From: an uncultured Candidatus Saccharibacteria bacterium
GTDB taxonomy: Bacteria > Patescibacteriota > Doudnabacteria > UBA920
NCBI GenBank assembly: GCA_964642585.1
Contig: CAZXPB010000001.1
Coordinates: 3,733-67,732, forward strand
Reading direction: 5' to 3'
Length of the DNA stretch: 64,000 bases
Below the pieces are notes generated by a model. The model worked only from the letters and a program-made list of their open reading frames with translations, was not told where the DNA came from and ran no database searches. Positions 13,494 to 61,828 of this stretch are shown here, piece by piece. Both the position numbers and the translations under genes were made by a program. Position 1 is the stretch's first letter, and every line of letters starts with the position of its first letter.

Positions 13494-13502
13494 TGCTACA
13501 AT
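13494..13502 (+). promoter_or_regulatory. extended -10 promoter (TGcTACAAT) 7 nt upstream of ruvA ATG (leaderless)
   Basis: ctaTGcTACAATtaagtatATG; spacing matches the recurrent pattern in this window. Confidence 0.5.
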
Positions 13503-13509
13503 TAAGTAT

Positions 13510-14088
13510 ATGATAGCTTATTTACAGGGTAAAATTCATCAAAAAACCACTCAATATATAGTGCTTTTGGGCGGTTCTGGCAGTGGTAATAGCATCGGTT
13601 ACAAGGTTTTTGTGACTCCAGAAATATTAGATTTACCAATTGGCAGTGAAACTGAGCTCTATATATATCACAAAAGTGGAGATGATGGCCAAGTCCTTTT
13701 TGGGATGCCCTCCTTTGCAAACCTACAGTTCTTTGAGATGCTTATTTCTGTCACAGGAGTGGGCCCAAAAATGGCTTTAACTATTGTTTCTGCAGCTCAA
13801 ATGGACATTTTACAACAAGCCATCGCTAACTCTGATACTGAAATCTTTACTCGTATGGCTGGTGTTGGTAAAAAAACTGCTGAAAGGATTATTTTGGAAC
13901 TTCGCAGCAAAATTACTAGTGATGGCCTCCTTGAAAGTACAAATGCAATCGGAAGTGATATTTACGATGCTCTAATTAGTCTTGGCTACAACCCAAGAGA
14001 AATTCGTGACACAATCCCCCAACTAGACTCTACTGCCGATACCGCAACTCAATTAAAGCACGCATTGAAACTACTTGGTAAAAATTAA
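13510..14088 (+). CDS. ruvA: Holliday junction branch migration protein RuvA
   Basis: MIAYLQGKI... N-terminus; HhH region (GVGPKMALTIVS / GVGKKTAERII); C-terminal domain III. The ORF-track start at 13372 is an artefactual extension that overlaps the upstream convergent gene. Confidence 0.9.
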   Translation: MIAYLQGKIHQKTTQYIVLLGGSGSGNSIGYKVFVTPEILDLPIGSETELYIYHKSGDDGQVLFGMPSFANLQFFEMLISVTGVGPKMALTIVSAAQMDILQQAIANSDTEIFTRMAGVGKKTAERIILELRSKITSDGLLESTNAIGSDIYDALISLGYNPREIRDTIPQLDSTADTATQLKHALKLLGKN

Positions 14089-14117
14089 CTTAAACTTCTT
14101 AGGAGTTTTCAACTCAG

Positions 14118-15143
14118 ATGGAAATTAGACAAGTTGCTATTGAAAATATAGATAAGTATGAAAGTTTTTTAAAAGAACAGTCGTTTTGTTCTTTTTTACA
14201 ATGTTCAGATTGGGGCGCATGGCAAGAAGCTCAAGGTCAAAAAGTTTTACGATTTATATTTGTAGAAGGCAATGATATTTTAGGAAGCGCGCAAGTTATC
14301 CTAAAAAGTACTCCACTTGGAAAATATTTTTACTGTCCTTACGGACCAGTTTTTAAAAAAGATTTACGTGGTGAAGATATAAAAAATATTTTTGAAAAAC
14401 TAATTACAAATTTAAAGCAAGATAAAAATATTTTATTTGTGCGCGTAGAGCCAACAACAGTTTTAGATTTAAATAAATTTGGTGGAGTAAAAGCAGAACC
14501 GGTGCAACCACCCCAAACTTTACTAAAAGATATTTCAGGCAGTGTTGATGATTTACAAAAAAGTTTTCACCATAAAACTCGTTACAATATTAAACTTGCA
14601 CAGAAGCACGAAGTAGAAATAAAATCTTTTAAAACACTTAACGAGAACTCTAGGTTAGTGATAGATTTAATAATGCAAACTTCAAGACGGCAGGGTTATA
14701 GAAACCATTCAGAAAGTTACATCACAAAGTTGTGGGGTTATTTTTCTGAAAATAAAAACGACGAAATTTCAGTTACAGGTTACTTAGCAGAAAAAGGTGG
14801 GCTAGCAATTGCCAGTGGTTTAGTTGTGGATTTTGCGAACACTCGCATGTATTTGTTCGGTGGCTCAAACTACGCAGGCCGAAATTTTATGGGTCCATAT
14901 CTGATGCATTGGCAAGCTATGCTAGACGCTAAAGAGAAAGGATTAGCTCTCTACGACTTTGGAGCAGGAGAGGATGCCAGTGGTAAAAGTGGGGGTTACG
15001 CGCGTTTTAAAAAGGGCTTTAACCCAGAAATAGTAGAGTTTTCTGGCACTTTCGACTTTGTTGTGAATTCCCCTAAATACACTATATTCAGAGCGCTTCG
15101 CAAAGTTAATCGGTTACGTTTACACTTGCCATTCGTAAAATAA
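14118..15143 (+). CDS. FemAB-family peptidoglycan interpeptide-bridge aminoacyltransferase (FemX-like)
   Basis: 341 aa. N-terminal SFLQCSDWGAWQ motif typical of FemAB/FemX (cf. FLQSSEWG). Adjacent to a Mur ligase gene. Confidence 0.75.
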   Translation: MEIRQVAIENIDKYESFLKEQSFCSFLQCSDWGAWQEAQGQKVLRFIFVEGNDILGSAQVILKSTPLGKYFYCPYGPVFKKDLRGEDIKNIFEKLITNLKQDKNILFVRVEPTTVLDLNKFGGVKAEPVQPPQTLLKDISGSVDDLQKSFHHKTRYNIKLAQKHEVEIKSFKTLNENSRLVIDLIMQTSRRQGYRNHSESYITKLWGYFSENKNDEISVTGYLAEKGGLAIASGLVVDFANTRMYLFGGSNYAGRNFMGPYLMHWQAMLDAKEKGLALYDFGAGEDASGKSGGYARFKKGFNPEIVEFSGTFDFVVNSPKYTIFRALRKVNRLRLHLPFVK

Positions 15144-17202: not shown

Positions 17203-17970
17203 CTATTCTTTTAATCTAAATTTCCAAAGAGTGAGGGCTAAAATTATAATCATCCACCCAGTGAGGATTATTAAATCTATCCACACTTGTCTAGTTATAT
17301 TCCCACTTAAAAATAGGATTCTAATGCCGTCTGCTAGATATGTAATAGGTAAAATTTTTCCAACAACTTTTAGAACTGCTGGGAGAGAATCAATTGGGAA
17401 AAAAATATTTCCCAGAAAAGTTAAAGGTAGTCCTACAGCAGTAGTGATCGGAGCCGCCGCTTCATAGGTATCTGCAAACATAGAGATTAGTAAACCAACG
17501 AGCAGAAAAATTGCTGCACCAATTGCAACGAAAACAAAGACAAACAACATTGTAATATTTAAGTTTACATGGAAAAATGCTACTCCAATAATTGTAAGGA
17601 ACATAGCTTGGATTAAAGCAATTATGACGCGACTAGCAAGAACGCTAATTACTAGCTCTCCCTGTTTCAATGGCGTGACTAGAAAACGTTTGATCACACC
17701 TCGTGACTTCAAATCAATCATCCAGTAAGCTAACCCATAAATTCCGCCTTGCATAACAGTCATAGCGATAATTCCCGGCAAAACGTATTTGGAATAATTT
17801 ACTCCCGACCCTGCCCCAAAAGCAGAACCAATTGGTAAAATAGAAAGGGCCACATAAATTATGGTTGGCATCACTAATGTAAAAAACATCCCAGTGCTAT
17901 TTCTATACACCAGACGCATATTCATCAAAAACAATTGGTTAAAGCTTGAGTTTTTCATTTTATTCTTCAA
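17203..17970 (-). CDS. ABC-2 type transporter permease
   Basis: 255 aa, 6 predicted TM helices; overlaps the upstream ATPase gene by 11 nt. Confidence 0.85.
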   Translation of the reverse strand: MKNKMKNSSFNQLFLMNMRLVYRNSTGMFFTLVMPTIIYVALSILPIGSAFGAGSGVNYSKYVLPGIIAMTVMQGGIYGLAYWMIDLKSRGVIKRFLVTPLKQGELVISVLASRVIIALIQAMFLTIIGVAFFHVNLNITMLFVFVFVAIGAAIFLLVGLLISMFADTYEAAAPITTAVGLPLTFLGNIFFPIDSLPAVLKVVGKILPITYLADGIRILFLSGNITRQVWIDLIILTGWMIIILALTLWKFRLKE

Positions 17971-18907
17971 AAGTTTTTCCTGTTAAATCTAAGTAAACAT
18001 CTTCTAAGGTAGCAGTCTTTACTGTAAATGAACTAAATTGAATATTTTTTTCTCGCAGTCTTTTTACGACATCTCCCACTACATCCAAATTCGAAATTTC
18101 AACTACTACTTTTGGAGTGGTGCTAAACATTTTTTCAACACCAGCGAGGCCTTCCCACAGACCTTGTGTGATTTCTGCATCTGTGAGAAAAGAAATTTGA
18201 GTGGTGTGTGAAAGGTCTTCAATTAATTTACGAGGGTCGTTAATAGCTAAGATTTCACCAGAATCCATAATTGCTACTCTGTTACATAAGTATTCCGCCT
18301 CTTCCATATAGTGTGTGGTTAAGACGATTGTGATGCCCCGCTCGTGAATGTGCTTTACTAGTTCCCATACATCACGGCGCGCTCGTGGATCAAGTCCTGT
18401 GGTTGGTTCGTCTAAAAATAAAATCTCTGGATCATTCACTAGAGCAGAAGCCAAAGTGAATCTTTGTTTTTGGCCTCCAGACAAATCTTTTACAAGTGCA
18501 TTTTTCTTATCTACTAAATTTACAAAGCCAAGCAGCTCATCTACATTGGCAGATTTCCCGTAAAGTGATGCGAAGACCTCTAGCAATTCTGAAAGTGACA
18601 TGAGGTTCATGTATTCACTGGACTGAAGTTGAACACCAATCCGTTTTTTTATTTGATCATTTTCAGTTTCGTTATTTAAACCCAAAACCAGAACTTCACC
18701 GGAAGTTTGCTTTTTCAATCCTTCAATAATTTCTAGTGTAGTAGTTTTGCCTGCACCATTTGGTCCTAGGATTCCAAAAATCTCACCCTTCTCTACTGAG
18801 AATGATGTTCCTTTTACAGCCTGGAAAGTAGTTCGCCCTTCTTTGCGTTCTTGTTTGGGCAGTTGATAAATTTTTTGTAAATTAGTGACTTCAATTACTT
18901 TTGGCAT
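17960..18907 (-). CDS. ABC transporter ATP-binding protein
   Basis: Walker A GPNGAGKTT, signature LSGGQKQR, Walker B ILFLDEPT. True start is MPKVIEV at 18907; the ORF-track start at 19051 is an extension over the promoter/terminator. Confidence 0.9.
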   Translation of the reverse strand: MPKVIEVTNLQKIYQLPKQERKEGRTTFQAVKGTSFSVEKGEIFGILGPNGAGKTTTLEIIEGLKKQTSGEVLVLGLNNETENDQIKKRIGVQLQSSEYMNLMSLSELLEVFASLYGKSANVDELLGFVNLVDKKNALVKDLSGGQKQRFTLASALVNDPEILFLDEPTTGLDPRARRDVWELVKHIHERGITIVLTTHYMEEAEYLCNRVAIMDSGEILAINDPRKLIEDLSHTTQISFLTDAEITQGLWEGLAGVEKMFSTTPKVVVEISNLDVVGDVVKRLREKNIQFSSFTVKTATLEDVYLDLTGKTFEE

Positions 18908-18922
18908 ATTTGGATTATACCA
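18908..18922 (-). promoter_or_regulatory. extended -10 promoter (TGgTATAAT) 6 nt from the ABC ATPase ATG (leaderless)
   Basis: Minus-strand reading ...tTGgTATAATccaaatATG. Confidence 0.55.
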
Positions 18923-18981: not shown

Positions 18982-19470
18982 TTATTTCGAGTCGGATTCG
19001 AATTTCCAACCGTTCTTTGCAAAACCCGGGGCAAGTGCAAAAGTGACCCATAGTAACCCAAGAGCTGCTGCAATTGCGATCTGCGAATAGCCTTGATCTC
19101 CAAACCTATTGATCTTTTCGAAAGATCGTAGGGTTAGCAGATTCATCAGTGAGAAAAAGACGAGGTTGCAAAAAGGTACAACAATTTTAGCAGCGATATG
19201 CTGGGCGCGATGTTTCTCGTAAGCCCTAATTACACTGTCTCCTCTCTTGGCAGAGTACGAATAACCGACATGCACAAAAAAATGACAGAGAGTGGCACCG
19301 GCAAGCGTACCGATTTGGACGTAGAGCACGTACCAACTTACTGATTGATTCCAGTAAGACGCGGCCACGCTGAGCAGAGTAGCGACCAACCACCCTACGA
19401 ACATGATGATGTACATCAAACCATTAAACAAGAGAGTTTCGCCTCTCAATTTATCATCTAAAGCAATCAT
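18982..19470 (-). CDS. hypothetical integral membrane protein (GC-richer)
   Basis: 162 aa, 4 hydrophobic segments; followed by its own terminator. Confidence 0.6.
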   Translation of the reverse strand: MIALDDKLRGETLLFNGLMYIIMFVGWLVATLLSVAASYWNQSVSWYVLYVQIGTLAGATLCHFFVHVGYSYSAKRGDSVIRAYEKHRAQHIAAKIVVPFCNLVFFSLMNLLTLRSFEKINRFGDQGYSQIAIAAALGLLWVTFALAPGFAKNGWKFESDSK

Positions 19471-19566
19471 AATTCCTCCAAAAGTCTTTGTTTAGACAAC
19501 TGTTACTTCTGTGGTAAATCCAAAAGAATTGAAACAGGATACAGCATTGTACTACTTTTGGGTTGT

Positions 19567-19595
19567 TTGGTCAAGTCCAGGTTCTTCTATATAAT
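19567..19595 (+). promoter_or_regulatory. sigma70-type promoter of uvrB (TTGGTC-17-TATAAT), 8 nt before ATG
   Basis: Hexamers and 17-nt spacer read directly; near-leaderless. Confidence 0.55.
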
Positions 19596-19603
19596 AACTA
19601 CAT

Positions 19604-21676
19604 ATGAAGTTTGAACTAAAGACCAAATACCAACCATCTGGCGATCAACCTCAAGCAATTGAGGGTCTTTTTAAGTCGCTGCAAAAAGGCTACCGCCATC
19701 AAACCTTACTCGGTGTGACAGGATCTGGAAAAACATTTACGATGGCGAGTTTAATTAACAAAATTCAGAAGCCTACTTTGGTAATGTGTCATAACAAAAC
19801 TTTAGCCGCACAACTTGCTAGTGAGTTCCAAGAATTTTTCCCAGATAACGCCGTGCACTATTTTGTTTCTTACTATGATTACTACCAACCAGAAGCCTAC
19901 ATCCCCCGCTCAGATACTTTCATTGAAAAGGAAACTCAAATTAATGAAGAGATCGACAGGTTAAGAAATGCGGCAACGACTTCGTTAATGTCACGGAAAG
20001 ATGTTTTAATTGTTGCGTCTGTTTCTTGTATCTATGGTTTAGGTAATCCCGAAAACTATTTAGAGCTTTCTTTAGAGCTTAAGCGTGGAGAAAGTTTAAA
20101 ACGCGATAAACTTCTTCGCCGCCTTATTGATATGCAGTACAACCGAAATGATTTAGATCTGCGCCGAGGTACTTACCGAGTGCAAGGAGATGTAGTTGAA
20201 ATTGTTTTATCTTCTGAAGATACAATCGTGCGTCTACAATTTTTTGGTGATGAAACAGAAAGCATAGAAAGACTGCATATGATTTCTGGTGATACAATTG
20301 AAAAACTAGATTCAATTAAAATTTTTCCTGCCAAACATTTTGTGACCCCAGAAGCAAAAGTGCAAATTGCCGTAGAACGCATTCGCGAAGAACTTGCAGC
20401 GAGATTACTAGAGCTACGAGGCCAAGGGAAAATTTTAGAAGCCGCGCGACTTGAACAGCGAACTAACTTTGATTTAGAAATGCTCACTAACACTGGCTTC
20501 GTTGCTGGTATTGAAAATTATTCACGTGTCATGGAAGGCCGCGAAGCTGGTAGTCCGCCATCTACTTTAATTGATTATTTCCCAGATGACTATTTATTAT
20601 TTATAGATGAATCACACCAGACCATACCACAAGTTGGTGCGATGTTTGAAGGTGACAAATCCAGAAAAACAACTTTAATTGATTATGGATTCCGCCTTCC
20701 AAGCGCGCTAGATAATCGCCCTTTAAAATTTAATGAATTTGAACAGAAAATAAACCAAGTAGTATTTGTTTCTGCGACCCCTGGTCCATACGAGGTCAAA
20801 AAAAGTTTAGAAGAAAACTTTTTAATCACTGACAAAAAACAAACAATTATAGATACCAGCACACCTAAAAAATTTGATTTACTCCGCAGCGAAGTGGTTG
20901 TTGAACAGATAAACAGACCGACCGGACTGCTTGACCCTACTATTGAGATCAGACCTATAAAAAATCAGGTGGACCATCTCATGACTCAAATTACAGAGAG
21001 GGTAAAGAACAAAGAAAGAGTGATTGTTACCACTTTAACAAAGCGAATGGCCGAAGAGTTAAATGAATACATTAAAGAAGCAGGGATTAAAGCTCAATAT
21101 TTACATAGCGAAGTAGAGACTTTTGAACGCTTAGAAATTTTGCGTGACTTACGGCTAGGAATTTATGATGTAATTATTGGTATCAATTTACTCCGCGAAG
21201 GCCTAGACCTACCAGAAGTTTCTCTCGTAGCAATATTGGATGCAGACAAAGAAGGATTCCTAAGAAGTGAAACTGCATTTATGCAAATCATGGGAAGAGC
21301 GGCGCGTCACTTGAATGGTCATGTAATTATGTACGCCGATAGAGTTACTGGTTCAATGCAACGTGCGATTGACGAAACTACGCGCCGCCGTAAAGTCCAA
21401 GAAATGTATAACACGGCGCATGGCATTACTCCAGAAAGTATTCAAAAGAAGATTCAAGACTCTCGCCTTGCAGGTAGCCACGAAGTTTTAGCCGGCGCAG
21501 AAATAGAAGAAGTTGATGTAACAAAACTTAACCCCGAAGGGATGCGAAACTACATAGATGAACTCAATGACCAAATGGATTTAGCCTCACAAAATTTAGA
21601 ATTTGAATTAGCCGCAAAAATCCGTGATCGCTTAATCGAGATAAAACAAGTTCAGAAGTTAAAAAAGAAAAGATGA
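19604..21676 (+). CDS. uvrB: excinuclease ABC subunit B (UvrB)
   Basis: 690 aa. GVTGSGKTFT Walker A, helicase motifs, C-terminal UvrB/UvrC interaction helix. Confidence 0.95.
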   Translation: MKFELKTKYQPSGDQPQAIEGLFKSLQKGYRHQTLLGVTGSGKTFTMASLINKIQKPTLVMCHNKTLAAQLASEFQEFFPDNAVHYFVSYYDYYQPEAYIPRSDTFIEKETQINEEIDRLRNAATTSLMSRKDVLIVASVSCIYGLGNPENYLELSLELKRGESLKRDKLLRRLIDMQYNRNDLDLRRGTYRVQGDVVEIVLSSEDTIVRLQFFGDETESIERLHMISGDTIEKLDSIKIFPAKHFVTPEAKVQIAVERIREELAARLLELRGQGKILEAARLEQRTNFDLEMLTNTGFVAGIENYSRVMEGREAGSPPSTLIDYFPDDYLLFIDESHQTIPQVGAMFEGDKSRKTTLIDYGFRLPSALDNRPLKFNEFEQKINQVVFVSATPGPYEVKKSLEENFLITDKKQTIIDTSTPKKFDLLRSEVVVEQINRPTGLLDPTIEIRPIKNQVDHLMTQITERVKNKERVIVTTLTKRMAEELNEYIKEAGIKAQYLHSEVETFERLEILRDLRLGIYDVIIGINLLREGLDLPEVSLVAILDADKEGFLRSETAFMQIMGRAARHLNGHVIMYADRVTGSMQRAIDETTRRRKVQEMYNTAHGITPESIQKKIQDSRLAGSHEVLAGAEIEEVDVTKLNPEGMRNYIDELNDQMDLASQNLEFELAAKIRDRLIEIKQVQKLKKKR

Positions 21677-23145: not shown

Positions 23146-25929
23146 TTAAAGTTTTTCCATCACTCCCCAATTGTTTCCTACTTTGGCTTCGGCAATAACA
23201 GGAACTTTTAACTTGTATGCACTCTCAAGAAGAGGTTTTAATATTGAAACCCAATGTTCTACTTTATCTTCACGAACCTCAAACACCAGTTCGTCATGAA
23301 CCTGCATAAGCATTTTAATTTCATCTTCTTTATCTACAAGTTTTTCAAAAATATTTATCATCGCAATTTTCAAGATATCTGCTTGAAGACTTTGAATTGG
23401 GAAATTGATAGCAGCTCGTTCTGCACCAGCCCTAACAAAAAATTGGCTTGAACGGATTTCGGGAAATTTGCGAACCCTGCCAACTTCATTTTTTATGAAG
23501 CCAGTTTCATTTACTTCACTCTTAATATTTTCAATAAAGTTTTGCACGCCTGAATATTCTTCAAAATATTTATCTATGAATTCTTTTGCATCAGTACGAG
23601 ACACTGCGCCGATTCGACTAGCTAACCCAAAACTAGAAAGTCCGTAGAGAATTCCAAAGTTAATTGTTTTTGCATCACGACGCTGGTCAGCTGTCACTTC
23701 ACCAGGAAGACAATCAAAAATAGCGCTTGCTGTGTTTGTGTGAATATCTTCATTGTTCTGGAATACTTGCATCATATTTTCATCTTCAGACAAATGTGCG
23801 ATAATGCGAAGTTCCATCTGAGAATAATCTATAGACAACAGCTTATATCCTTTTTCAGCAATAAAAGCTTTGCGAATTTCTGAACCAATCCCTGTCCCTC
23901 GAATTGGAATATTTTGTAAGTTTGGGTCGGTGCTGGAAAGTCTTCCTGTTGCTGCGACTGTTTGGTTGTAACTTGTGTGGATCCGGCCAGTTCGGGCGTT
24001 AACCAACATTGGCAACGCTTGTAAGTAAGTTGACTCTAGTTTAGATAATTCGCGGTAACTTAAAATTTTCTCAATAATTTGATGCTCGCCAACTAATTGT
24101 TCTAAAACACCAGCTGCAGTAGACAGGCCAGTTTTGTTTCGTTTACCTGCTGTAAGTTTAAGTTTTGAATACAGAATTTCCTGCAGTTGTTTTGGTGAGC
24201 CAATATTAAACTCCTCACCCGCAAGTTTATAAATATCTTTTTCCAAGAGACTAATCTCTGTTTGAGCTTGATCAGATAATTTCTCTAATAGTCCAACATC
24301 TACTTTTACCCCGAAGCGCTCCATGCTCGCAAGCACTTGGATTAAAGGCATCTCAATATTATTGAATACTTCTTCTAGGCCTTCCGCTTTTAACTGCGGA
24401 GCAAAAACTTCTTTAAGACGAATGGTGAAATCTGCATCCTCACAAGCATACCAACTAACAGTTTCAACAGGAACATCTCGCATTGAAATCTGATTTTTGC
24501 CTTTACCAATCAATTCTTCGATTGATTGCATTTGGTAACCAAACTCGTTAAAAGCCAGAGCATCAAGTCCATGTTGACGAGTGCCTGCATTAAGTAAATA
24601 GCTTGCGATCATTGTATCGAAAAAAAGAGGACTTAAATTAACTCCGGCATTCCCAAATGTTAAATAATCGTACTTTAAGTTATGCCCGACTTTATCAATA
24701 TTTTTATTTTCTAAAATTAACTTTAGCTCTGGGCTTGCATCTAGGATTTCGCGGGTTACATAGTAAGCTTCACCTGATTTAAAACACAGCGACAAACCAA
24801 TAATTTGCGCATCTATGGCATAGAGTTGATCAGTTTCAGTATCGACAATAAATTCTTTTTGTTTTGAAAGAATTTTTAAAAGTTCTTCCAATTTTTGCTT
24901 GGTGTCTATGAGGGTGTAAACTTGTTCGCCAATATCCACTTGAGTTTCAGATTTTTCAGACAAGTTGTCATGAGGATGGATAGTATCAATTTCTTCATCA
25001 GCTCCTACAGAAGGAACAGCAGCATAGCCTTTGGGTAACTTATCTATTAAACTTTTAAACTCTAATTCTTGGAAAACTTTTAAGGTTTTATTTAGTTCAG
25101 CTCTTTTAAATTCATATGGAGGAATATGAATATCCAACGGAACCTCCAAAACAATTTTTGAAAGCTCATAGCTTTGTATGGCATCGGCTTCGCCATCTTG
25201 AAGCAACTTTAAAACGCGAGGTTTAATTTTATCACCAGTCTTTCCTTCTTTAATTTGTTTATACAAATTTTCTATACTCCCAAAATCTAAAATTAACTGG
25301 CTCGCAGTTTTTTCTCCAATCCCTTTCACTCCTTTAATATTGTCAGATGGGTCACCACGAAGTGCTTTGTAATCAATCATTTGCAACGGTTCAAGTCCGT
25401 AGCGTTCCTTGATTGCTGCAATATCGTAAACAGCAGTGTCATTAATTCCTTTGCGCATAGTGTAAATTTTCACGCACTTATTAACCAATTGCAGAGAGTC
25501 TAAATCGCCAGTGACTATCATTACATCACAGGAATGTTCATGTTTCTCACAAATATGCTTAGATAAAGTACCTAACACATCATCTGCTTCAAAACCTTCA
25601 ATTTCAAAAATTGGTATGTTTAAAGCCCTAACAACTTCTTTCACCCTTGGAAATTGTGCATATAATTCATCATCTCCTTTTACTCTAGTGGCTTTGTAAT
25701 CAGCATACATTTCATCTCGAAAGGTTGGTCCAGCAAGGTCAAAGCTACAAGCGATATGAGTTGGCTTAAGTTCTTTAATTGCCCGAAGCAAGATCATGGT
25801 AAAACCATAAACAGCATTAGTATGTTCACCGGCTTTATTTGTTAAAGGCGGAACAGCATGATAACCCCTATGGATTAATGCGTTCCCGTCTACTAACATA
25901 TATCGATTTTCTGCTTGTTTTTTAGCCAT
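23146..25929 (-). CDS. polA: DNA polymerase I (5'-3' exonuclease, 3'-5' exonuclease-like and polymerase domains)
   Basis: 927 aa. N-terminal FEN-like domain; polymerase motifs (…RRDAKTINFGILYG…, …QVHDELVFE…). Confidence 0.95.
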   Translation of the reverse strand: MAKKQAENRYMLVDGNALIHRGYHAVPPLTNKAGEHTNAVYGFTMILLRAIKELKPTHIACSFDLAGPTFRDEMYADYKATRVKGDDELYAQFPRVKEVVRALNIPIFEIEGFEADDVLGTLSKHICEKHEHSCDVMIVTGDLDSLQLVNKCVKIYTMRKGINDTAVYDIAAIKERYGLEPLQMIDYKALRGDPSDNIKGVKGIGEKTASQLILDFGSIENLYKQIKEGKTGDKIKPRVLKLLQDGEADAIQSYELSKIVLEVPLDIHIPPYEFKRAELNKTLKVFQELEFKSLIDKLPKGYAAVPSVGADEEIDTIHPHDNLSEKSETQVDIGEQVYTLIDTKQKLEELLKILSKQKEFIVDTETDQLYAIDAQIIGLSLCFKSGEAYYVTREILDASPELKLILENKNIDKVGHNLKYDYLTFGNAGVNLSPLFFDTMIASYLLNAGTRQHGLDALAFNEFGYQMQSIEELIGKGKNQISMRDVPVETVSWYACEDADFTIRLKEVFAPQLKAEGLEEVFNNIEMPLIQVLASMERFGVKVDVGLLEKLSDQAQTEISLLEKDIYKLAGEEFNIGSPKQLQEILYSKLKLTAGKRNKTGLSTAAGVLEQLVGEHQIIEKILSYRELSKLESTYLQALPMLVNARTGRIHTSYNQTVAATGRLSSTDPNLQNIPIRGTGIGSEIRKAFIAEKGYKLLSIDYSQMELRIIAHLSEDENMMQVFQNNEDIHTNTASAIFDCLPGEVTADQRRDAKTINFGILYGLSSFGLASRIGAVSRTDAKEFIDKYFEEYSGVQNFIENIKSEVNETGFIKNEVGRVRKFPEIRSSQFFVRAGAERAAINFPIQSLQADILKIAMINIFEKLVDKEDEIKMLMQVHDELVFEVREDKVEHWVSILKPLLESAYKLKVPVIAEAKVGNNWGVMEKL

Positions 25930-26028
25930 ATTATCTATATTGTAGCTGTTTTAGTATATTTAAAAAAGAGCTGGAAAACACTTGTTCATGATATAATCTA
26001 ACTAAGATAAAACATTAAAGAAACAAAA

Positions 26029-28863: not shown

Positions 28864-30000
28864 TTAGCGGTCTTGAATTATCTCTACTAATTTTTGTTGA
28901 ATTTCAACCAATGGTTTTTTAAATTGCACCTGGATAAATTGGTACTGTCCTAACAGTGGTTTAGGTTTTTCTAGTAACTCTCTGTCAATTAACTTCTCAC
29001 CAAAAGAAACTATATTTTCATGAGGTAGTCCCGCAATTAAAACTTCAGCATTTTCAGCGATCAGAATGATTAATGAGTAACCCGTGACAACTTCAATTAG
29101 ATCTTTAAGAGTGCTTGTAATTAATTGTGCATTACTTTTAGTTTTTTCTAAATCGCTGCTAGTTAAAACAGCAGTGAGAACTTTCTTTTCAGGATATTCT
29201 GTTAATCGCGCCAAAGCTCTCCCCCAAAGTTGGAGTTGTTGAAGAGATTTAGTTTTAAATAAATATCGAATAATGTCTTGTTGTTTTGCACCGCTGGCAA
29301 CCAATTCAGAGGATTTCATTAAAACTTGTGGGGTAGTTTTTGGATCTCTAAAACTAGATGTTTGTGAAATAATTCCAGCAAGCAAACTTGTTGTAGCCTC
29401 CTCATCTTTTAAAACATCGGGAAATTCTTTTTTTACTAGATCGTAAACTACCTCTGATAAACAAGTTGCGACAGGGTTGATAAAGTTTAGTTTGCTAAAA
29501 TATTCGTTAGTTGGGCTAATATCTATATTTATGGAAGGAGTGTCAAAGAATAGTTTTGTGTTTTGAGAGTAGAGTTGCCCAACATCTTCCAAAGATGGAC
29601 AGTTGAGAATAACAAGCAAGTCATACTGACCGGCATTTGGCACAACACTCACATCTGTTTCTTTAAAATTTCCTTTGTCGGTAGATATAGATATGCTCAA
29701 GCCTCCATCTACTTTTTCATATTTTATTTCTTTTGGTTCAGCGTTCTGGTTTGAAACTTTAATTAACAGTTCTTTACCATCACTGAGAGAGGAGTGAATA
29801 ACAGGAGAGGATTTTAAGTACTGGGTTGTTGGAATATTTTCACTACTACTAAAAATAGTGGCTTTATTACCTAGGTTTTTGATTACTTTCTCTAAAACAA
29901 TGGCGCTAGAAAGAGCGTCTAAACTTAGTTGTTTTGGCAGGATAATTGCTGTCTGACCTGCTGTTTTTATTGATTTAACTATAGTTTCAATGTTTTCCAT
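28864..30000 (-). CDS. DHH/DHHA1-family phosphoesterase homologue (NrnA-like) with degenerate catalytic motifs
   Basis: 378 aa. Layout matches NrnA (…LLVILNCPSLEDVG…, …LLAGIISQTSSFR…) but the DHH/PDGD N-terminal motif is replaced (…ILPKQLSLDALSSAIVL…). Family assignment by eye only. Confidence 0.45.
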   Translation of the reverse strand: MENIETIVKSIKTAGQTAIILPKQLSLDALSSAIVLEKVIKNLGNKATIFSSSENIPTTQYLKSSPVIHSSLSDGKELLIKVSNQNAEPKEIKYEKVDGGLSISISTDKGNFKETDVSVVPNAGQYDLLVILNCPSLEDVGQLYSQNTKLFFDTPSINIDISPTNEYFSKLNFINPVATCLSEVVYDLVKKEFPDVLKDEEATTSLLAGIISQTSSFRDPKTTPQVLMKSSELVASGAKQQDIIRYLFKTKSLQQLQLWGRALARLTEYPEKKVLTAVLTSSDLEKTKSNAQLITSTLKDLIEVVTGYSLIILIAENAEVLIAGLPHENIVSFGEKLIDRELLEKPKPLLGQYQFIQVQFKKPLVEIQQKLVEIIQDR

Positions 30001-30056
30001 GGCTTATCAATATAGCTAATTTTACTAATAAGGTCAATACAACTATAATTAGGGTA

Positions 30057-30452
30057 ATGCGAAAGATTAAAATCAGGCTAAGTCAAGCAGAAAACTACGC
30101 AACTGAAATAGCTCAAACCCTAAAAGGCGGTGAAGTTTTGGCTTTAATTGGAGAGCTTGGAAGTGGTAAAACTACCTTCACAAAAGCTTTAGGAAAAGCT
30201 TTGGGAATCAAGAGAAATATTCCCAGTCCAACTTTTGTGATGATGCAAGAATTTAAGACCAAACGAGGCTTGATCTTATATCATCTTGATTTGTACCGCA
30301 CTAAAAATTTTACCGAAGTGAAAAGTTTGGGAATCACAGAATGGTGGGGTCATCCTAAAACAGTAACAGTTTTAGAGTGGGCGGATAAAATTCAAGATCA
30401 CTTACCGAAAAAGACAATTTTTATATATTTAACAAGGGATAATGATTTATAA
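30057..30452 (+). CDS. tsaE: tRNA t6A biosynthesis ATPase TsaE (YjeE)
   Basis: GELGSGKTTFTKAL P-loop and SPTFVMMQEF motif. Confidence 0.85.
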   Translation: MRKIKIRLSQAENYATEIAQTLKGGEVLALIGELGSGKTTFTKALGKALGIKRNIPSPTFVMMQEFKTKRGLILYHLDLYRTKNFTEVKSLGITEWWGHPKTVTVLEWADKIQDHLPKKTIFIYLTRDNDL

Positions 30453-35817: not shown

Positions 35818-35824
35818 AAATTGA

Positions 35825-38790: not shown

Positions 38791-38796
38791 TACCCA

Positions 38797-38931
38797 ATGA
38801 AAAGAACTTACCAACCGAAAGTAAAAAAGCGTAAGCGAGTCCACGGGTTTATGGCTAGAATGCAAACTCGAACTGGTAGAGCAGTATTAGCCCGTCGTAG
38901 ACTTAAAGGGCGAAAAAGCCTCACAGTATAG
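38797..38931 (+). CDS. rpmH: 50S ribosomal protein L34
   Basis: [44 protein letters not shown] (44 aa), below the ORF-track size cutoff; classic position next to rnpA. Confidence 0.93.
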
Positions 38932-50846: not shown

Positions 50847-51491
50847 TTAACGAAGTGGTTCTAGAGTAATGATTTGCATTTTCTCTGGATCCAAATCTTT
50901 TTTCTTGATAATTAATTTTTCCATTGATTCAGACTTGCCACCCATTTCTTTAATGAAGCCATCTGCTTTTTCGTAAGGAAGCTTGAGGCCGTCAATAGCG
51001 TAGTGGGATGGTATCACAATTTTAGCTTCAATCTCATGTGCAACTTTGCTTGCGTCCTTTGCAGTCATTACACTGTTGCCACCAACTGGCAAGATTAGAA
51101 TATCAATTTCACCAAGGTCGTCTAGATCGTCTTCTTTCATGTTGAACTCACGAATGTGGGTGAGGTCTAAAATACGGATATCTTCTGCTTCAATTAAGAT
51201 TGCTGAGACATAGCGGCCTTTGCCATCTTTGCCATCGTCTTGTTTCAAAGGGATTCCGGTAACAGTTACGCCTTTCAGGTCGTAGTCGCCTGGATCGCTC
51301 ATTAAGAATGGCTCCCCTGAGAAGCCAGAAGTGGCGGTGTAAAGCTTGTTGTTTTTCTCGGAAAGAATGATGATATCTGCTGCTCCGCGAGGCGGAGTGA
51401 GGCCGGATTCTTTGTCAAAAGGGTCAGTAATTACAGTAGCGTCTTTAGTGACAATCTTGAAGCTAGATAGGCCGAAATAGTGGATTTGCAT
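50847..51491 (-). CDS. metallo-beta-lactamase-fold metal-dependent hydrolase (UPF0173-like)
   Basis: MQIHYFGLSSFKIVTKDATVITDPFD N-terminus typical of this family. Confidence 0.7.
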   Translation of the reverse strand: MQIHYFGLSSFKIVTKDATVITDPFDKESGLTPPRGAADIIILSEKNNKLYTATSGFSGEPFLMSDPGDYDLKGVTVTGIPLKQDDGKDGKGRYVSAILIEAEDIRILDLTHIREFNMKEDDLDDLGEIDILILPVGGNSVMTAKDASKVAHEIEAKIVIPSHYAIDGLKLPYEKADGFIKEMGGKSESMEKLIIKKKDLDPEKMQIITLEPLR

Positions 51492-51578
51492 AGGTAAATT
51501 ATAGCAGTTTTAGGGGTGGTAAACAACTGAATTTTAGACTATAATTTTATTGGTTATGATAGATTTTATGGGGGAATT

Positions 51579-53396: not shown

Positions 53397-53456
53397 ATAT
53401 TAATTGCGGCTGAACCACCTATTCATAGGAAATTCCGGAAATATCCACATTCTTGC

Positions 53457-53485
53457 TTGACAGCTTCACTTTAGTTTGCTAAAGT
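53457..53485 (+). promoter_or_regulatory. promoter TTGACA-17-TAAAGT; predicted TSS coincides with ATG at 53492 (leaderless)
   Basis: Read directly. Confidence 0.5.
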
Positions 53486-53491
53486 ATGTGT

Positions 53492-53806
53492 ATGAATTGG
53501 AATGAATCTAAAAAAACTAAATTAATATCAGCTTTTCTTGCTCTAGAGAACCCAAAAGAGTGTCAGGCTTTTTTACGTGATTTAATGACTGAAAAAGAAA
53601 TTGAAGAATTTTCAAACAGGTTAAAGGCTGCTGAAATGCTTGCTGAAAAAGTTTCATATGTTGAAATAGTGAAAGCTACAGGCTTGAGCTCAACAACAGT
53701 TGCGCGTGTTGCCAAATGGCTAAACGGAAAAGAACAAGGGTATAAATCAGTGCTTTCTAAATTACATCACACTAACTCTATTCAAAAACGGAAAGGGTTG
53801 TCTTGA
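53492..53806 (+). CDS. TrpR-like YerC/YecD-family DNA-binding protein
   Basis: …VSYVEIVKATGLSSTTVARVAKWLNG… HTH region. The ORF track starts 2 codons earlier (53486). Confidence 0.7.
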   Translation: MNWNESKKTKLISAFLALENPKECQAFLRDLMTEKEIEEFSNRLKAAEMLAEKVSYVEIVKATGLSSTTVARVAKWLNGKEQGYKSVLSKLHHTNSIQKRKGLS

Positions 53807-54504: not shown

Positions 54505-54540
54505 AAATGACCCGTGTAATTGATACACGGGTCATCTTTT
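54505..54540. terminator. bidirectional terminator
   Basis: tgacccgtgt-aattgat-acacgggtca + T-run. Confidence 0.75.
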
Positions 54541-55354
54541 ATATTGCAACTCCAAGTAGAAAAGCTTCCTCACCAATCTTATCCCTGTTTCTTGCAAATA
54601 AAATTATACTATCTTTTTGAGCAATAATTTGCTCTCCACCGTCTACCCCTATAAGCATACCTTTTGAGATTATTTCAAAGTCTCCAAATTGTTTGCTTAG
54701 TTTGAAATTATCCGTTTTAGTTTTGTATAATTCATACATCTGGAACTTATCTTGTTCTATTCCAACTATGTTATTAGGAATATTACCAGCTGCTTTCAGA
54801 AAACTCATAATTGTATTTTCTGCAAAACTAGAATATTGTTTATCATCAAGGAATCCACACTCAACACATATCCCAATTTTGCCTACACTATTCATATAAT
54901 AATCGGTACCACCAGGTTCCACTTCATCAAATCCATAGACAACCTTCTTAACAGGTAGGAACTTGGTGATGCCGTCTGAGTTTGGCTCGCAAATTGCAAA
55001 AGGTACGCTTTGTGGGGTAAAGCTGTTGTGAAGATCTAAAAGTATATCCGCTCTATCTAATAATGATTTTAAGATTCCTGCTCGGTTAAATTCATAACTA
55101 GTTTTCTCTTTGCTAGTCAATTCTTGGACAGGTCTAAATAAACGGTTTAGGTTTGAGTCAATAAATCGTTTGTTTGTTTTAATAGCTGCGGGGTTTCCAT
55201 AAACAAAGATTACCTTTCCGCTATTCACCGTAAGGATTGGGATAATTTTAGCAAATGCATTAATTCCACTTCTTTCGTTTCCATGAACTCCAGTTAAGAT
55301 AATGCTTGTCGGACCGCTATTTTTACCAACTATTTCAAATATATTTTCATACAT
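54539..55354 (-). CDS. succinylglutamate desuccinylase/aspartoacylase-family zinc hydrolase
   Basis: …LTGVHGNERSG… zinc-binding motif. Confidence 0.7.
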   Translation of the reverse strand: MYENIFEIVGKNSGPTSIILTGVHGNERSGINAFAKIIPILTVNSGKVIFVYGNPAAIKTNKRFIDSNLNRLFRPVQELTSKEKTSYEFNRAGILKSLLDRADILLDLHNSFTPQSVPFAICEPNSDGITKFLPVKKVVYGFDEVEPGGTDYYMNSVGKIGICVECGFLDDKQYSSFAENTIMSFLKAAGNIPNNIVGIEQDKFQMYELYKTKTDNFKLSKQFGDFEIISKGMLIGVDGGEQIIAQKDSIILFARNRDKIGEEAFLLGVAI

Positions 55355-55392
55355 ATTATCACTTTAGCAAACTAAAGTGATAATGTCAAGCA

Positions 55393-58081: not shown

Positions 58082-58112
58082 GATGGTGTTCCAAAGTACA
58101 GGATGTTAGGAT
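58082..58112 (-). repeat. 31-nt conserved element (copy A) immediately 3' of the Nudix-1 stop codon
   Basis: Minus-strand reading TCCTAACATCCTGTACTTTGGAACACCATCA followed by AAAAAC; matches copy B at 58551-58584. Confidence 0.6.
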
Positions 58113-58507
58113 TTATCATTTGCAAAGTTTTTAACCCATTCGCCACGTAATTTTAAATTATTAAGTTTTTCAACAGGAAACCACTTGGCATCAAGAAGGT
58201 CATCTCCAGGAATTAAATTCCCTGAAGTGATCTTGGCTTTAAAAATAGTTAAGGTTACTTGCTTGTTGTGGAATTCACTCAAGCATTTTAATTCCTTGCC
58301 TGTCATTGTTAGAGTATATTTTTTACCCAGACTTACGATGTAGCCAGTTTCTTCTTTTGTTTCTCTACTAGCTCCTTCTGCTAATGTTTCATTCTTTTCT
58401 AATGAGCCTATTGGTAATGACCATAACCCGTTCGCGGCAGTGTGCGATTCCTGAACTAATAATACCTGACTATTTTTGTTAACTAATGTTCCTGCAAATT
58501 GCATCAT
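58106..58507 (-). CDS. Nudix hydrolase
   Basis: Nudix box GSLEKNETLAEGASRETKEETGY; leaderless start with extended -10. Confidence 0.85.
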   Translation of the reverse strand: MMQFAGTLVNKNSQVLLVQESHTAANGLWSLPIGSLEKNETLAEGASRETKEETGYIVSLGKKYTLTMTGKELKCLSEFHNKQVTLTIFKAKITSGNLIPGDDLLDAKWFPVEKLNNLKLRGEWVKNFANDKS

Positions 58508-58549
58508 AAACCTAGTATAACAAAAAACTCCCCTTTAGGGAGAGCTTTT
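58508..58549 (-). promoter_or_regulatory. terminator hairpin (ctccc-taaa-gggag + T6) immediately followed by extended -10 promoter TGtTATACT, 6 nt from the Nudix-1 ATG
   Basis: Minus-strand reading ...aaaaagctctccctaaaggggagttttttgttatactaggtttATG. Confidence 0.6.
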
Positions 58550-58584: not shown

Positions 58585-58886
58585 TATTTCACAATATCAG
58601 CAGATACAATTTTCTTAGTAATAGCTCCTACGAATACTCTGTAAGCTGGTCTACTTTCTTTCTTATAGATAATCTTACTACCTAGCACTTCTTTGCACTT
58701 AGTGCAGATTAAGTCATTACTCTTAGGCGCAGTTGGGTAAATACGGTCTAAATATAAACGTTTGATTATTCCTGGGCCATCTTTCTGATAATAGAATAAA
58801 TGATGTCCCGCTCTTTCACATTTAATATCCAACAACCTAGATGTTCCACCTCTATTCTTTCTGTATTTGTCCTGTTTAAGTTTCAT
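58584..58886 (-). CDS. small basic zinc-ribbon protein (C-x3-HH...C-x2-C), hypothetical
   Basis: 100 aa, 11-nt overlap with upstream Nudix-2 gene; K/R rich. Confidence 0.55.
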   Translation of the reverse strand: MKLKQDKYRKNRGGTSRLLDIKCERAGHHLFYYQKDGPGIIKRLYLDRIYPTAPKSNDLICTKCKEVLGSKIIYKKESRPAYRVFVGAITKKIVSADIVK

Positions 58887-59418
58887 TAACCAATTTAGTT
58901 AATAGTTCTTTGATCTCTTTAAATCCTGTTGGTCTGCTTGACCATTGATCGGGCTTTTCTTCTATGGAGTTTAAGACATCATCCAAAGACATCCATTTTA
59001 CTCCTTGCACTTCTCCGTCATTAAAGATTAAGTCATTCGTGTCGCCTGTAAAGTTGTAGAAGTATACATTAGTAAATTCTCTATTTGGTAACTTATCTCT
59101 TTTGTGAATAGGTCCCACGGTGACTTGTTCGGTAGAGATATCAAGACCTGTTTCTTCTTTCAGTTCATTTTTCAGGGCTTCTTCAAGGGTTTCTCCAGCC
59201 TTTACATGACCACCAAACCTAGTATCCCACTTATCAGGATTTAAGTCCTTGGTTTTGGAACGATGATGTACTAACAATTCAATAACTTCGTTATTAAGTC
59301 GGTAGAAGTAAATATGTACAGTTCGATGCCATAATCCTTGGGTATGAGCTTCAGAACGTAGTCTTTTCTCACCGGTTAAATTGCCCGATTCATCTAGTAT
59401 GTCAAAATATTCTTCCAT
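58876..59418 (-). CDS. Nudix hydrolase (second copy)
   Basis: Nudix box GGHVKAGETLEEALKNELKEETGL; extended -10 TGtTATACT 6 nt before ATG. Confidence 0.85.
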   Translation of the reverse strand: MEEYFDILDESGNLTGEKRLRSEAHTQGLWHRTVHIYFYRLNNEVIELLVHHRSKTKDLNPDKWDTRFGGHVKAGETLEEALKNELKEETGLDISTEQVTVGPIHKRDKLPNREFTNVYFYNFTGDTNDLIFNDGEVQGVKWMSLDDVLNSIEEKPDQWSSRPTGFKEIKELLTKLVNET

Positions 59419-59475
59419 AAAACTAGTATAACAAAAAAACTTTCTTTAAGGTTTAATCAGCTTTCCCATTAATGA

Positions 59476-61779
59476 TTAAGAAGAAGTAGTTGAGGTGCAA
59501 ATTGTCTCAAGCCGTGAATAATGATCTTCATCAGCCAACTCAATAAATTTTAGTACATTTAGCGCAATGGGTTTTGCTTCGAGCATTGATGCAGATATAC
59601 CGCGAGAGAAATCTTGACCGTGAGAATATTCGTGCAAAAACTTCACAATAAAATCTCCAGTTCCTTTCATTCTATCATCGTTACTCGTTACGAATCTACT
59701 CATTACAATACTATTAAATTCTTCAGTTGTTGCACATGACCACTTAAACCCAGCAAAATATTCTAAGATCTTTCGAGCTATATTCGCAACAAGTGGTTCG
59801 TCGAGCTGTCGTGTACCCTTAGCGAATTGATAAAGTCTACAGAATAAATACTGATACTCACTTTTATATTCTTTTAGTAAGTTAGGCAGATTTTCTATTT
59901 TGACTTCTTGGACTTCGCTTTCTTTATCGTGAGTAATCAGAAACATATTAGACTCATCTTTGTATTGTCTACTCATAAGCCAATCCCGAATAAGATTAAA
60001 GAAATCGAAGTTGTGAGTAAGTACTATTAATTGACCCACATCCTTTAAATGTCTTTTTATTAAACCCGCTGTGCGGAACAAGAATATACTGTCTTGACTG
60101 TCGACTGGATCATCTAAAACAACAAGGCAATTAGCTTTATCGCTATCATTTTCTTCCAGTTTAATTAAGAAATAAACTAAAGCTAAAACACTTTCCTCTC
60201 CCTCGCTAAGATGTTTGGCATCTTTTCCTCTTCTTTTCAGAATGTAAGATATTTCTCCGTCATCTGACTCATTTACCTCCAGATAGATAAGTGATTCCCC
60301 GAAAAATTCTTTTAATAGTGAATTAATTTTATCCACCGCATCAGATGCGTTTGTCAAAGACGCTTTTAAGACTTTAATATCTAGGAGTGTTTTGTTTCGT
60401 TCTTCTTTAGCTTTTTCTATTTCTGCCGTTAGTCTAATTACCTCACTTTTATTTTTAAAGTAGTTTTTGTTCTCTAGAATAGAAGCAATTGTATGAAGTT
60501 CAATACTTTCTGCAGCCGCTTTCACCTCTTCTGATATAGATTGCACTCTAATATTGTGCTCACTAACTATCTTTTCTATTGTTTTAAGAGATTCATTCGC
60601 TTTTTCTATATCTTCTCTGGGATATTCAATTGGTTCGTGCTTCTTCTCGTGATTGTGTAAATCAACCTGCTTATCTTTCAACTGCGTTATGATTAGGTTG
60701 ATTTGGTTTTGTATATTTTGAACGTGTTGTGATAATTCTTTCTTAGCAGCAGCACATTCTTTGCTTGGCTCGGGAAACAAAAGAGATGGTTCTAGTTCTG
60801 GAAGTTTCTCATTATTATCATTTCCAGCTAACAAATTAATAGTTTCTTGTATTTGTAATTTCGCTTTTTGTAGTTCGTCGGTAAAGAAACCACCTAACTG
60901 TACTAATAGATCATCTGGTAAAACGCCTTTGCAAAATTGGCATTCTTTTAACCCTCTTTGCTTATGTATTTTGTAACCAGCTTCTATCCAATCCTTTAAC
61001 TCACCATCTTCCTTTAATCCTTCAATGTTTTGAAAAGTAATTGAAGTGTTTAATAAACCATTGGCACTATCGAACAATTCTTCAAAATCCTCAATAGTGT
61101 TAAATTTAATATTTATCTCGGTCTTCTCATTTTTTATTACTTCTTTTTTAGAATCAACTTCGCTAGGTTCAGCAATAATAAGTGAGTTTAAGTTAGCTTC
61201 TGTGATAACCCCAGTTTCTAAACGTTTGTCTACCTTTAATTTATTATAACTTCGTCCGTAATATGTATCATCCCCTAATGGTGTATTGGTAAATTGTTTA
61301 GGAACTTCTCGGCCAGCTTGAGTTAATACATCGTCGGGATTAGGTATTTGTTTAAGTTGTTCTTCGAGTGTTTGTATTGTATTTTGATTAGTCTGGTAGT
61401 TTGATTCGTGTTGTTCAATTTGTTGTTGGGCTGTTACATTCTCTTTACCTAATATTACAATCTTTTTTGCTTGGGAATCCTCAAAGGATAAATTTTCTGT
61501 AATAAAGTCTTCGTTAAATACCTTAACGTTAAGTCCATTAGAAGTTATGTCTGTTTGCTTAATTGGAGATGCGTCTGTTTCTATGGAAAATTCAACTGAT
61601 TTCAAATCATCGATGTGAACATCCTTTCTTTCAAGAAAATTAAAGATTCTGGATATAGTAGTTTTTCCAGATCCGTTCCACCCATAAATTAGACCGTACT
61701 TCTTAAAGTCGTCCCCTATCCATTTAAACGCATCGAATGCGTCAATGTGTGTTATCTGTTTTATCTTCTTTATTAGCAT
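59476..61779 (-). CDS. RloC/PrrC-like ABC-type ATPase with coiled-coil CxxC (zinc-hook-like) insertion and C-terminal putative anticodon-nuclease domain
   Basis: Walker A GWNGSGKTT; ~350-aa coiled-coil insert containing CQFCKG; Walker B/D-loop LVVLDDPVDS; H-loop LTHN. C-terminal ARKILEYF...(≈40 aa)...H fits the R-x3-E...H anticodon-nuclease triad pattern (recalled from memory). Start taken at first ATG (MLIKKIK); GTG at 61809 is an alternative. Confidence 0.65.
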   Translation of the reverse strand: MLIKKIKQITHIDAFDAFKWIGDDFKKYGLIYGWNGSGKTTISRIFNFLERKDVHIDDLKSVEFSIETDASPIKQTDITSNGLNVKVFNEDFITENLSFEDSQAKKIVILGKENVTAQQQIEQHESNYQTNQNTIQTLEEQLKQIPNPDDVLTQAGREVPKQFTNTPLGDDTYYGRSYNKLKVDKRLETGVITEANLNSLIIAEPSEVDSKKEVIKNEKTEINIKFNTIEDFEELFDSANGLLNTSITFQNIEGLKEDGELKDWIEAGYKIHKQRGLKECQFCKGVLPDDLLVQLGGFFTDELQKAKLQIQETINLLAGNDNNEKLPELEPSLLFPEPSKECAAAKKELSQHVQNIQNQINLIITQLKDKQVDLHNHEKKHEPIEYPREDIEKANESLKTIEKIVSEHNIRVQSISEEVKAAAESIELHTIASILENKNYFKNKSEVIRLTAEIEKAKEERNKTLLDIKVLKASLTNASDAVDKINSLLKEFFGESLIYLEVNESDDGEISYILKRRGKDAKHLSEGEESVLALVYFLIKLEENDSDKANCLVVLDDPVDSQDSIFLFRTAGLIKRHLKDVGQLIVLTHNFDFFNLIRDWLMSRQYKDESNMFLITHDKESEVQEVKIENLPNLLKEYKSEYQYLFCRLYQFAKGTRQLDEPLVANIARKILEYFAGFKWSCATTEEFNSIVMSRFVTSNDDRMKGTGDFIVKFLHEYSHGQDFSRGISASMLEAKPIALNVLKFIELADEDHYSRLETICTSTTSS

Positions 61780-61818
61780 AATTGAGCTTATCTTAGCAGT
61801 TTTGTTCACTTATTAGAA

Positions 61819-61828
61819 GTGGTATAAT
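61819..61828 (+). promoter_or_regulatory. extended -10 promoter TGgTATAAT; predicted TSS ~61835
   Basis: Read directly; divergent from the RloC-like gene. Confidence 0.5.

Follow-up and report, generated by a model that had tools for sequence, protein, structure and literature searches.

Leaderless translation initiation is a pathway known from Actinobacteria, Deinococcus and archaea. In the GeneMarkS-2 classification, group C genomes carry a Pribnow box 6-8 nt from the starts of the first genes of operons, with ribosome-binding sites (RBSs) elsewhere (Lomsadze et al. 2018, PMC6028130). This group is typified by Mycobacterium tuberculosis, Streptomyces and Deinococcus, takes in about 1000 of 4769 bacterial genomes, mostly from Actinobacteria and Deinococcus-Thermus, and has 25-50% of its operons leaderless (PMC6028130). 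Leaderless transcriptomes have been mapped in M. tuberculosis (Cortes et al. 2013) and Deinococcus deserti (de Groot et al. 2014), both cited in PMC6028130 and PMC12641261. Here we analysed a 64-kb stretch of contig CAZXPB010000001.1 (hereafter the window), in which promoters end just upstream of the ATG start codons of ruvA, uvrB, dnaA, rpmH and other genes. The mechanism is not new, since this grammar is already formalised as group C; the lineage is one of the points in which the window differs. We consider it probable (roughly 0.8) that the transcription units headed by these genes give leaderless transcripts or transcripts with leaders of 0-3 nt.

As in group C, first genes in the window have their Pribnow box 6-8 nt from the start, in an estimated 12-15 of about 34 transcription units (~35-45%, on a predicted operon structure), and start-codon prediction hinges on recognising mixed start types. 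Group C lineages are mostly of high G+C, whereas the window has a G+C content of about 38% and carries near-consensus TATAAT, TTGACA and extended -10 elements. Moreover, the other genes of group C genomes have RBSs, while the non-leaderless genes here mostly lack a Shine-Dalgarno (SD) sequence. The inferred transcription start site (TSS) at the A or G of the start codon, the -10 element about 7 nt upstream and the absence of an SD are shared with M. tuberculosis and D. deserti; those two cases rest on differential RNA sequencing and proteomics, whereas the present one is predicted from sequence. Mycobacteria also use GTG for leaderless starts, while the signal in our material was confined to ATG.

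The window is dense in housekeeping genes, with identities confirmed by Pfam: rpoB/rpoC, ruvA, ruvB, ruvC, uvrB, polA, dnaA-dnaN-recF, rpmH-rnpA-yidD-yidC-jag, gyrA, tyrS, rpsA, rpsT, pilB, genes for a PBP1, for FemAB and for Mur ligase, and two Nudix genes. Its DnaA matches a protein of a 69-kb public contig at 100% identity. Among species-representative genomes, the closest relatives of its DnaA (74-80% identity) came from metagenome-assembled genomes labelled Patescibacteria group or 'uncultured Candidatus Saccharibacteria', and the nearest named relatives were Candidatus Doudnabacteria, with 55-63% identity. These relatives place the organism in the Candidate Phyla Radiation (CPR).

Twelve of 55 genes, and two or three weaker cases, appear to have a sigma-70-type promoter that ends 6-8 nt before the ATG. 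The twelve strong cases, all of which start with ATG, are the following (the gap is the number of bases between the -10 hexamer and the ATG).

13494..13512, plus strand: ruvA promoter and start, TGcTACAAT at 13494-13502, gap 7 nt, ATG at 13510
18905..18922, minus strand: ABC-transporter ATPase promoter and start, TGgTATAAT at 18922-18914, gap 6 nt, ATG at 18907
19567..19606, plus strand: uvrB promoter and start, TTGGTC-17-TATAAT at 19567-19595, gap 8 nt, ATG at 19604
28864..30000, minus strand: hypothetical gene (hyp378), TTGACC-17-TATATT at 30037-30009, gap 8 nt, ATG at 30000
30021-30049, plus strand: tsaE promoter, TTTACT-17-TATAAT, gap 7 nt, ATG at 30057
38583..38623, minus strand: dnaA promoter and start, TTTACA-18-TAGAAT at 38623-38594, gap 8 nt, ATG at 38585
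38762..38799, plus strand: rpmH promoter and start (gene 38797..38931), TTGACT-17-TATAAT at 38762-38790, gap 6 nt, ATG at 38797
51489..51506, minus strand: promoter and start of a metallo-beta-lactamase (MBL)-fold gene (50847..51491), TGcTATAAT, gap 6 nt, ATG at 51491
53454..53494, plus strand: promoter and start of a YerC/TrpR-like gene, TTGACA-17-TGcTAAAGT at 53457-53485, ATGs at 53486 and 53492
55352..55392, minus strand: promoter and start of an AstE/AspA-like gene (54539..55354), TTGACA-17-TGcTAAAGT at 55389-55361, gap 6 nt, ATG at 55354
58505..58522, minus strand: promoter and start of Nudix-1 (58106..58507), TGtTATACT, gap 6 nt, ATG at 58507
59416..59433, minus strand: promoter and start of Nudix-2 (58876..59418), TGtTATACT, gap 6 nt, ATG at 59418

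All eight promoter/ATG examples put forward in the original prediction were found base by base, with the hexamers and gaps that it gave, and its gene names agreed with Pfam; tsaE (30057), the divergent hypothetical gene (30000), the MBL-fold gene (51491) and the AstE-like gene (55354) are four strong cases beyond it. In the YerC-like gene the -10 directly adjoins a first ATG (53486); the likely start is the second one (53492), at gap 6 (104 amino acids, aa).

The promoters came in two forms, about half each: six sites scored 10-11 of 12 in a sigma-70 promoter scan (TTGACx-17-TAnnnT), and six others were extended TGnTAnnnT elements. With a -35 element, a 16-18-nt spacer and a -10, or a TGn extended -10, they have the make-up of predicted sigma-70-type housekeeping promoters. 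Several stand directly after hairpin and T-run terminators, as does that of Nudix-1 (hairpin at 58542-58528), and several lie within divergent intergenic regions of 56-87 nt; the hyp378 and tsaE promoters are placed back-to-back and overlap within a 56-nt region (30000..30059). This arrangement is consistent with genome compaction.

Two pairs of these promoters resembled each other. On either side of a GNAT gene, the YerC/TrpR-like gene and, convergent with it, the AstE/AspA-like gene have promoters of identical type (TTGACA-17-TGcTAAAGT) within a common ~32-nt sequence, TGCTTGACAnnnTCACTTTAGTTTGCTAAAGT (53454-53486, plus strand; 55392-55360, minus strand). A palindrome, CACTTTAG-tttg-CTAAAGTG, overlaps the -10 of this pair (two matches versus 0.03 expected); it is a candidate for the operator through which the TrpR-like repressor would regulate its own gene. 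The promoter-start cassettes of Nudix-1 and Nudix-2 are near-identical, TTTTTTGTTATACTAGkTTTATG (58505-58545 and 59416-59440, minus strand), which suggests either duplication of promoter plus gene or common regulation.

We then scored a strong -10 at a gap of 5-9 nt upstream of ATG codons, by a rule written after the examples had been seen. Such an element preceded 13 of 53 gene-start ATGs versus 15 of 1755 other ATGs (odds ratio 38, P = 7e-14); roughly a quarter of the genes in the window thus have a promoter this near the ATG. There were 28 ATGs preceded by such a promoter. Annotated genes begin at 14 of them (13 genes and the second Met codon of Nudix-1), 11 open ORFs (open reading frames) of at most 23 codons, and three belong to longer ORFs that do not count as genes of their own, namely in-frame internal Met codons in femAB (14673) and uvrB (21404) and an ORF antisense to hyp354 (1449). 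Starting from the promoter side, 112 stringent promoter-like sites were followed by an ATG at gaps of 6, 7 and 8 nt 7, 5 and 5 times, against a background of 1.7 per position, and 6 nt was the most frequent gap. The totals of promoter-like sites were no higher than in shuffled sequence (42 versus 41.6 and 30 versus 31.5), so what departs from chance is only where they stand with respect to ATGs.

A start-agnostic test, in which every in-frame ATG near the 5' end of an ORF was allowed as a start and ORFs had to reach at least 100 aa, flagged 12 of 52 ORFs in the window (23%) where 1.0 was expected (~2%). When the gap was shifted to 15-19 nt as a control, four ORFs (8%) were flagged, and the dnaA region of Escherichia coli gave 0 of 42. 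The MP1 plasmid of Deinococcus radiodurans, intended as a positive control, gave 0 of 35 at the threshold used; because the test favours consensus A/T-rich promoters, it is not a general detector of leaderless genes. A loose TAnnnT motif combined with first-ATG starts gave a weak excess in the window (32% versus 21% expected), since TAnnnT is overly frequent in A/T-rich DNA and the first ATG is often not the true start. TGnTAnnnT alone, without gene context, gave a peak in the window and in the Doudnabacteria loci, and none in the closest relatives.

We compared the spacing across two sets of 80 neighbourhoods each, around dnaA in representative genomes and around uvrB in metagenomes. A -10 at gap 5-9 was kept in 12 of 19 ruvA and 12 of 17 tsaE orthologues, and TGnTATAAT at gap 6-9 in 9 of 13 orthologues of the ABC ATPase, with the intervening bases differing in all three sets. 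For uvrB, gap 5-9 was found in 16 of 76 orthologues, including relatives of 95% and 81% identity, and others were leadered; the 95%-identical relative (L111) kept gap 8 with a changed spacer. The closest orthologues of hyp378 had a gap of 10. Among neighbouring genes, the conserved -10 was absent from femAB (0 of 10 orthologues) and recF (0 of 55), both operon-internal, and from polA (0 of 5), and was present in 1 of 30 orthologues of rnpA. The original prediction that -10 or extended -10 elements recur just upstream of ATG codons is borne out by the counts in the window together with the spacing kept in orthologues.

The rpmH and dnaA orthologues showed the same element at two distances. In rpmH, gap 6-9 was seen in 22 of 55 orthologues, including distant CPR members with only 37-42% DnaA identity, and other orthologues had the same TATAAT about 30 nt upstream. 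The dnaA promoter, TTTACATGTTGATAACT...CTGTTAGAAT, was conserved across the clade; it stood 6-9 nt from the ATG in ten loci (L006, L008, L009 with TAAAAA, L019, L020, L025, L036, L039, L040 and L050) and 25-40 nt upstream in about 20 others, often followed by a GGAG-containing leader. Because the element occurs either near the ATG or 25-40 nt upstream of it, the hexamer is a -10 element and not a ribosome site acting at the RNA level. The comparison shows genes of the lineage that would toggle between leaderless and leadered states.

The dnaA promoter also carries TGTTGATAA over its -35 region (38594-38623, minus strand), one mismatch from the DnaA box TGTGGATAA. TGTTGATAA was likewise present upstream of dnaA in L005-L009, L019, L020, L025, L036, L039, L040, L044 and L050, which suggests that a putative autoregulation of dnaA by DnaA is conserved in the clade.

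The start-agnostic test flagged 11-17% of ORFs in Doudnabacteria-like groups and 4-8% in more distant loci, and the peak was always at gap 6. By start codon, the enrichment in relatives amounted to 39 of 230 ORFs for ATG, 0 of 165 for GTG and 5 of 202 for TTG.

In sigma-70 promoters, the +1 lies about 7 nt downstream of the last -10 base. A gap of 6 nt therefore makes the A of the ATG the +1, while at gaps of 7-9 nt the leader is 1-3 nt long. Transcripts of the genes in question would thus start on that A or 1-3 nt ahead of it, leaving no room for an SD, and ribosomes would bind the 5'-terminal AUG directly, which is leaderless initiation. None of the 15 leaderless candidates had a 4-nt SD core, and only 5-9 nt separate the -10 from the ATG. 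The remaining genes would use a classical SD, in a minority of cases, or an A/T-rich leader lacking one. The widespread leaderless translation proposed in the original prediction is thus well supported in silico: from the promoter architecture, its statistical excess, the restriction to ATG, the missing SD and the conserved orthologue spacing we infer the TSSs and the mechanism of translation.

We weighed whether the hexamer might instead be an A/U-rich, non-SD ribosome-binding or enhancer motif within a longer 5' untranslated region, as in GeneMarkS-2 group B. Most other genes of the window have A/T-rich leaders with no SD, so SD-independent initiation does exist here, many genes are A-rich before the ATG as in group B, and a few internal genes carry a weak TAAAAT or TAAATT at gap 6-7. 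The group B motif, however, is not a promoter and precedes all genes including internal ones, whereas the TAnnnT described here is accompanied by DNA-level promoter features, a -35 at 17 nt or TGn, and occurs only at the heads of transcription units; femAB, recF and rnpA lacked it in nearly every orthologue (0/10, 0/55 and 1/30). The same conserved dnaA and rpmH elements are found 25-40 nt upstream in other genomes, and several sites follow terminators or lie in 56-87-nt divergent regions with no space for another promoter. We therefore regard an RNA-level motif as quite unlikely.

A second alternative to leaderless initiation is that the starts were mis-assigned, the real start being a downstream ATG and the promoter-proximal ATG belonging to a short leader or mini-ORF. 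Three strong promoter-like sites (63066, 12510 and 51568) have, at gap 7-8, ATGs that open ORFs of just 2-10 codons, so the first ATG beside a -10 is not always a gene start, and the first ATG of the YerC-like gene cannot be one. For the genes themselves, Pfam alignments begin within residues 1-10 (residue to model position: RuvA_N 1 to 1, RecF 3 to 2, MBL 2 to 1, TsaE 10 to 6, DnaN 1 to 1), and residues 1-65 of RuvA align to model positions 1-61. DnaA homologues share the length and N-terminus, the orthologue N-termini MI(A/S) of RuvA and MTNQQ of DnaA are conserved at the DNA level, and independent public gene calls agree with the starts. General mis-assignment is, against this evidence, very improbable.

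The view that TAnnnT hexamers, frequent in A/T-rich DNA, merely happen to lie near ATGs can draw on the shuffled-level site totals, on the small excess obtained with the loose motif and first-ATG starts, and on the random look of the recF match and of the weak Mur ligase, jag, yidD and hyp100 matches, but for the 12 strong cases chance is effectively refuted by the odds ratio against other ATGs, the sharp gap-6 peak, the orthologues that keep the spacing while their spacer sequences differ, and the limitation of the enrichment to ATG.

Several points weigh against leaderless initiation as we propose it. In the nearest relatives (dnaA at least 74% identical) the signal was weaker, at 12%, and the promoter-first peak was not significant, and dnaA is leadered in L001-L004; the leaderless state is therefore evolutionarily labile. 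The 8-9-nt gaps of uvrB, dnaA, hyp378 and polA may give 1-3-nt leaders and not strictly leaderless transcripts, and at least one strong-looking case, recF, is probably due to chance. The folding energy of the 5' end (first 25-50 nt) did not set leaderless candidates apart from other genes (P = 0.19-0.99). Finally, the scoring rule postdates the examples, and the starts of ruvA, the ABC ATPase and yerC were curated with the motif in view; public gene calls and homology back these three starts independently, and they play no part in the start-agnostic test.

The weaker matches were as follows.

23146..25944, minus strand: polA, an uncertain, weaker candidate with TACAAT at gap 9 (score 5)
32942, plus strand: bPH-domain gene, a weak case with TATATT at gap 5
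35815..35829, minus strand: recF, TATAAT at gap 6, the hexamer containing the stop codon of dnaN

We rejected recF as a leaderless gene, since its hexamer overlaps the dnaN stop codon and no orthologue (0 of 55) had a -10 at gap 5-9. The gene hyp242 (TTG at 21742) was also set aside: TGtTAAGAT is its promoter, and its start is the ATG at 21781 behind AAGGAG. The hypothetical gene hyp280 (12606-13448, minus strand), divergent from ruvA, has a TATAAT only 3 nt before its first ATG (13448); its codons 1-3 contain a GGAGG that could serve a second ATG (13436) lying 5 nt further on.

A broader claim is that leaderless initiation is conserved and lineage-wide in the Doudnabacteria-like clade and its neighbours, in 10-25% of genes including dnaA, ruvA and uvrB from the replication and repair core, and rpmH, with individual genes switching state repeatedly through short indels between a conserved promoter and the ATG. 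We put this forward tentatively, as a possibility that we would not yet bet on. If true, the clade would be a third major leaderless-rich bacterial lineage, of low G+C, with reduced genomes and reduced ribosomes, and this would inform the question of whether leaderless initiation is an ancestral trait or arose through genome streamlining. Full-text searches in a limited literature set found no discussion of leaderless genes in Patescibacteria, the CPR or Saccharibacteria, and a TM7x preprint mentioned neither TSSs nor promoters. Our results suggest that ultra-small, genome-reduced bacteria would use promoter-abutting start codons widely, which fits their 56-90-nt divergent intergenic regions. 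They are mildly of interest for the evolution of translation initiation and supply native promoters for genetic tools in a group with scant knowledge of transcription and translation signals.

The genes outside the leaderless set were examined for SD sequences. A 4-nt core was present in 13 of 40 (11% of control ATGs, P = 3e-4) and a 5-nt core in 6 of 40, and 27 of 40 had none; the 16S anti-SD sequence lies outside the window. The clearest SD sequences belong to leadered genes that apparently head their own transcripts (19470, 21781, 47983, 53883 and 57720).

18982..19470, minus strand: SD-led hypothetical gene, GGAGG 5 nt before the ATG (19468..19484)
21781: SD-led start, AAGGAG
47983: SD-led start, GGAGG, GTG start codon
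53883: SD-led start, GGAGG
57720: SD-led start, AAGGAG
14118: SD-led start, AGGAG

Most operon-internal genes, including ruvB, the Mur ligase, the tsaB-like gene, yidD, yidC, jag, ruvC and yebC, had no SD, and among internal genes femAB alone was a good example. The original prediction that genes inside operons instead carry GGAGG was thus overstated. Since A/T-rich leaders without an SD are common among the other genes, they form a third class, and three predicted initiation classes therefore coexist: leaderless, SD-led, and A/T-rich leaders lacking an SD.

An A-rich run resembling GAAACAAA(A) was seen just 5' of the ATG in hyp372, pilB, yidC, PBP1 and hyp354, all leadered and without an SD (26000-26028, 28806-28830, 39516-39536, 43632-43665 and 2018-2040), and also upstream of dnaA in L001-L004. 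It may be a signal for SD-independent initiation. At pilB (28806-28862, minus strand), TGgTATAAT is followed by a 9-bp hairpin and T-run (28853-28831), then by 25 A-rich nt and the ATG; this is either an upstream-gene terminator sitting downstream of a promoter, or an attenuator-like leader.

Start-codon annotation is affected by promoters this close to the ATG. In ruvA and the ABC ATPase, the longest ORF runs upstream of the promoter, and the promoter-proximal ATG gives the N-terminus canonical for the family (MPKVIEVTNLQK for the ATPase); the genes are thus 13510..14088 (192 aa), not 13372..14088, and 17960..18907 (315 aa). The remark that several starts of the ORF track are wrong is true of a longest-ORF track, for at least nine genes, but is not news: in public gene calls for this contig RuvA already has 192 aa, the ABC ATPase 315 aa and YerC 104 aa, and standard gene finders therefore manage. 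In some close relatives (L083-L162, public protein clusters), RuvA (203 versus 192 aa) and the ABC ATPase (340 versus 315 aa) are called longer in public data, and these 11-25 extra residues may be over-extended starts at leaderless genes. For metagenome bins of the CPR, gene-start prediction should allow for leaderless genes.

Three further features of the window were noted. An Rfam match to the LOOT RNA (61845-61961, plus strand; 71 bits, gathering score 46.4) lies immediately upstream of an AAA_13 ATPase gene on the opposite strand (59476..61779, minus strand). A tRNA-Ile with the anticodon UAU (47336-47412, minus strand) adjoins the TP-methylase/yebC/ruvC operon; such a tRNA is an uncommon way to read AUA, without the lysidine modification of a CAU tRNA. 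Lastly, a perfect 12/12 consensus promoter, TTGACA-17-TATAAT (51892-51920, plus strand), is found some 180 nt upstream of rpsA (52100) and coincides in part with a terminator-like hairpin (51886-51905); it implies a putative long rpsA leader, as expected for S1 autoregulation.

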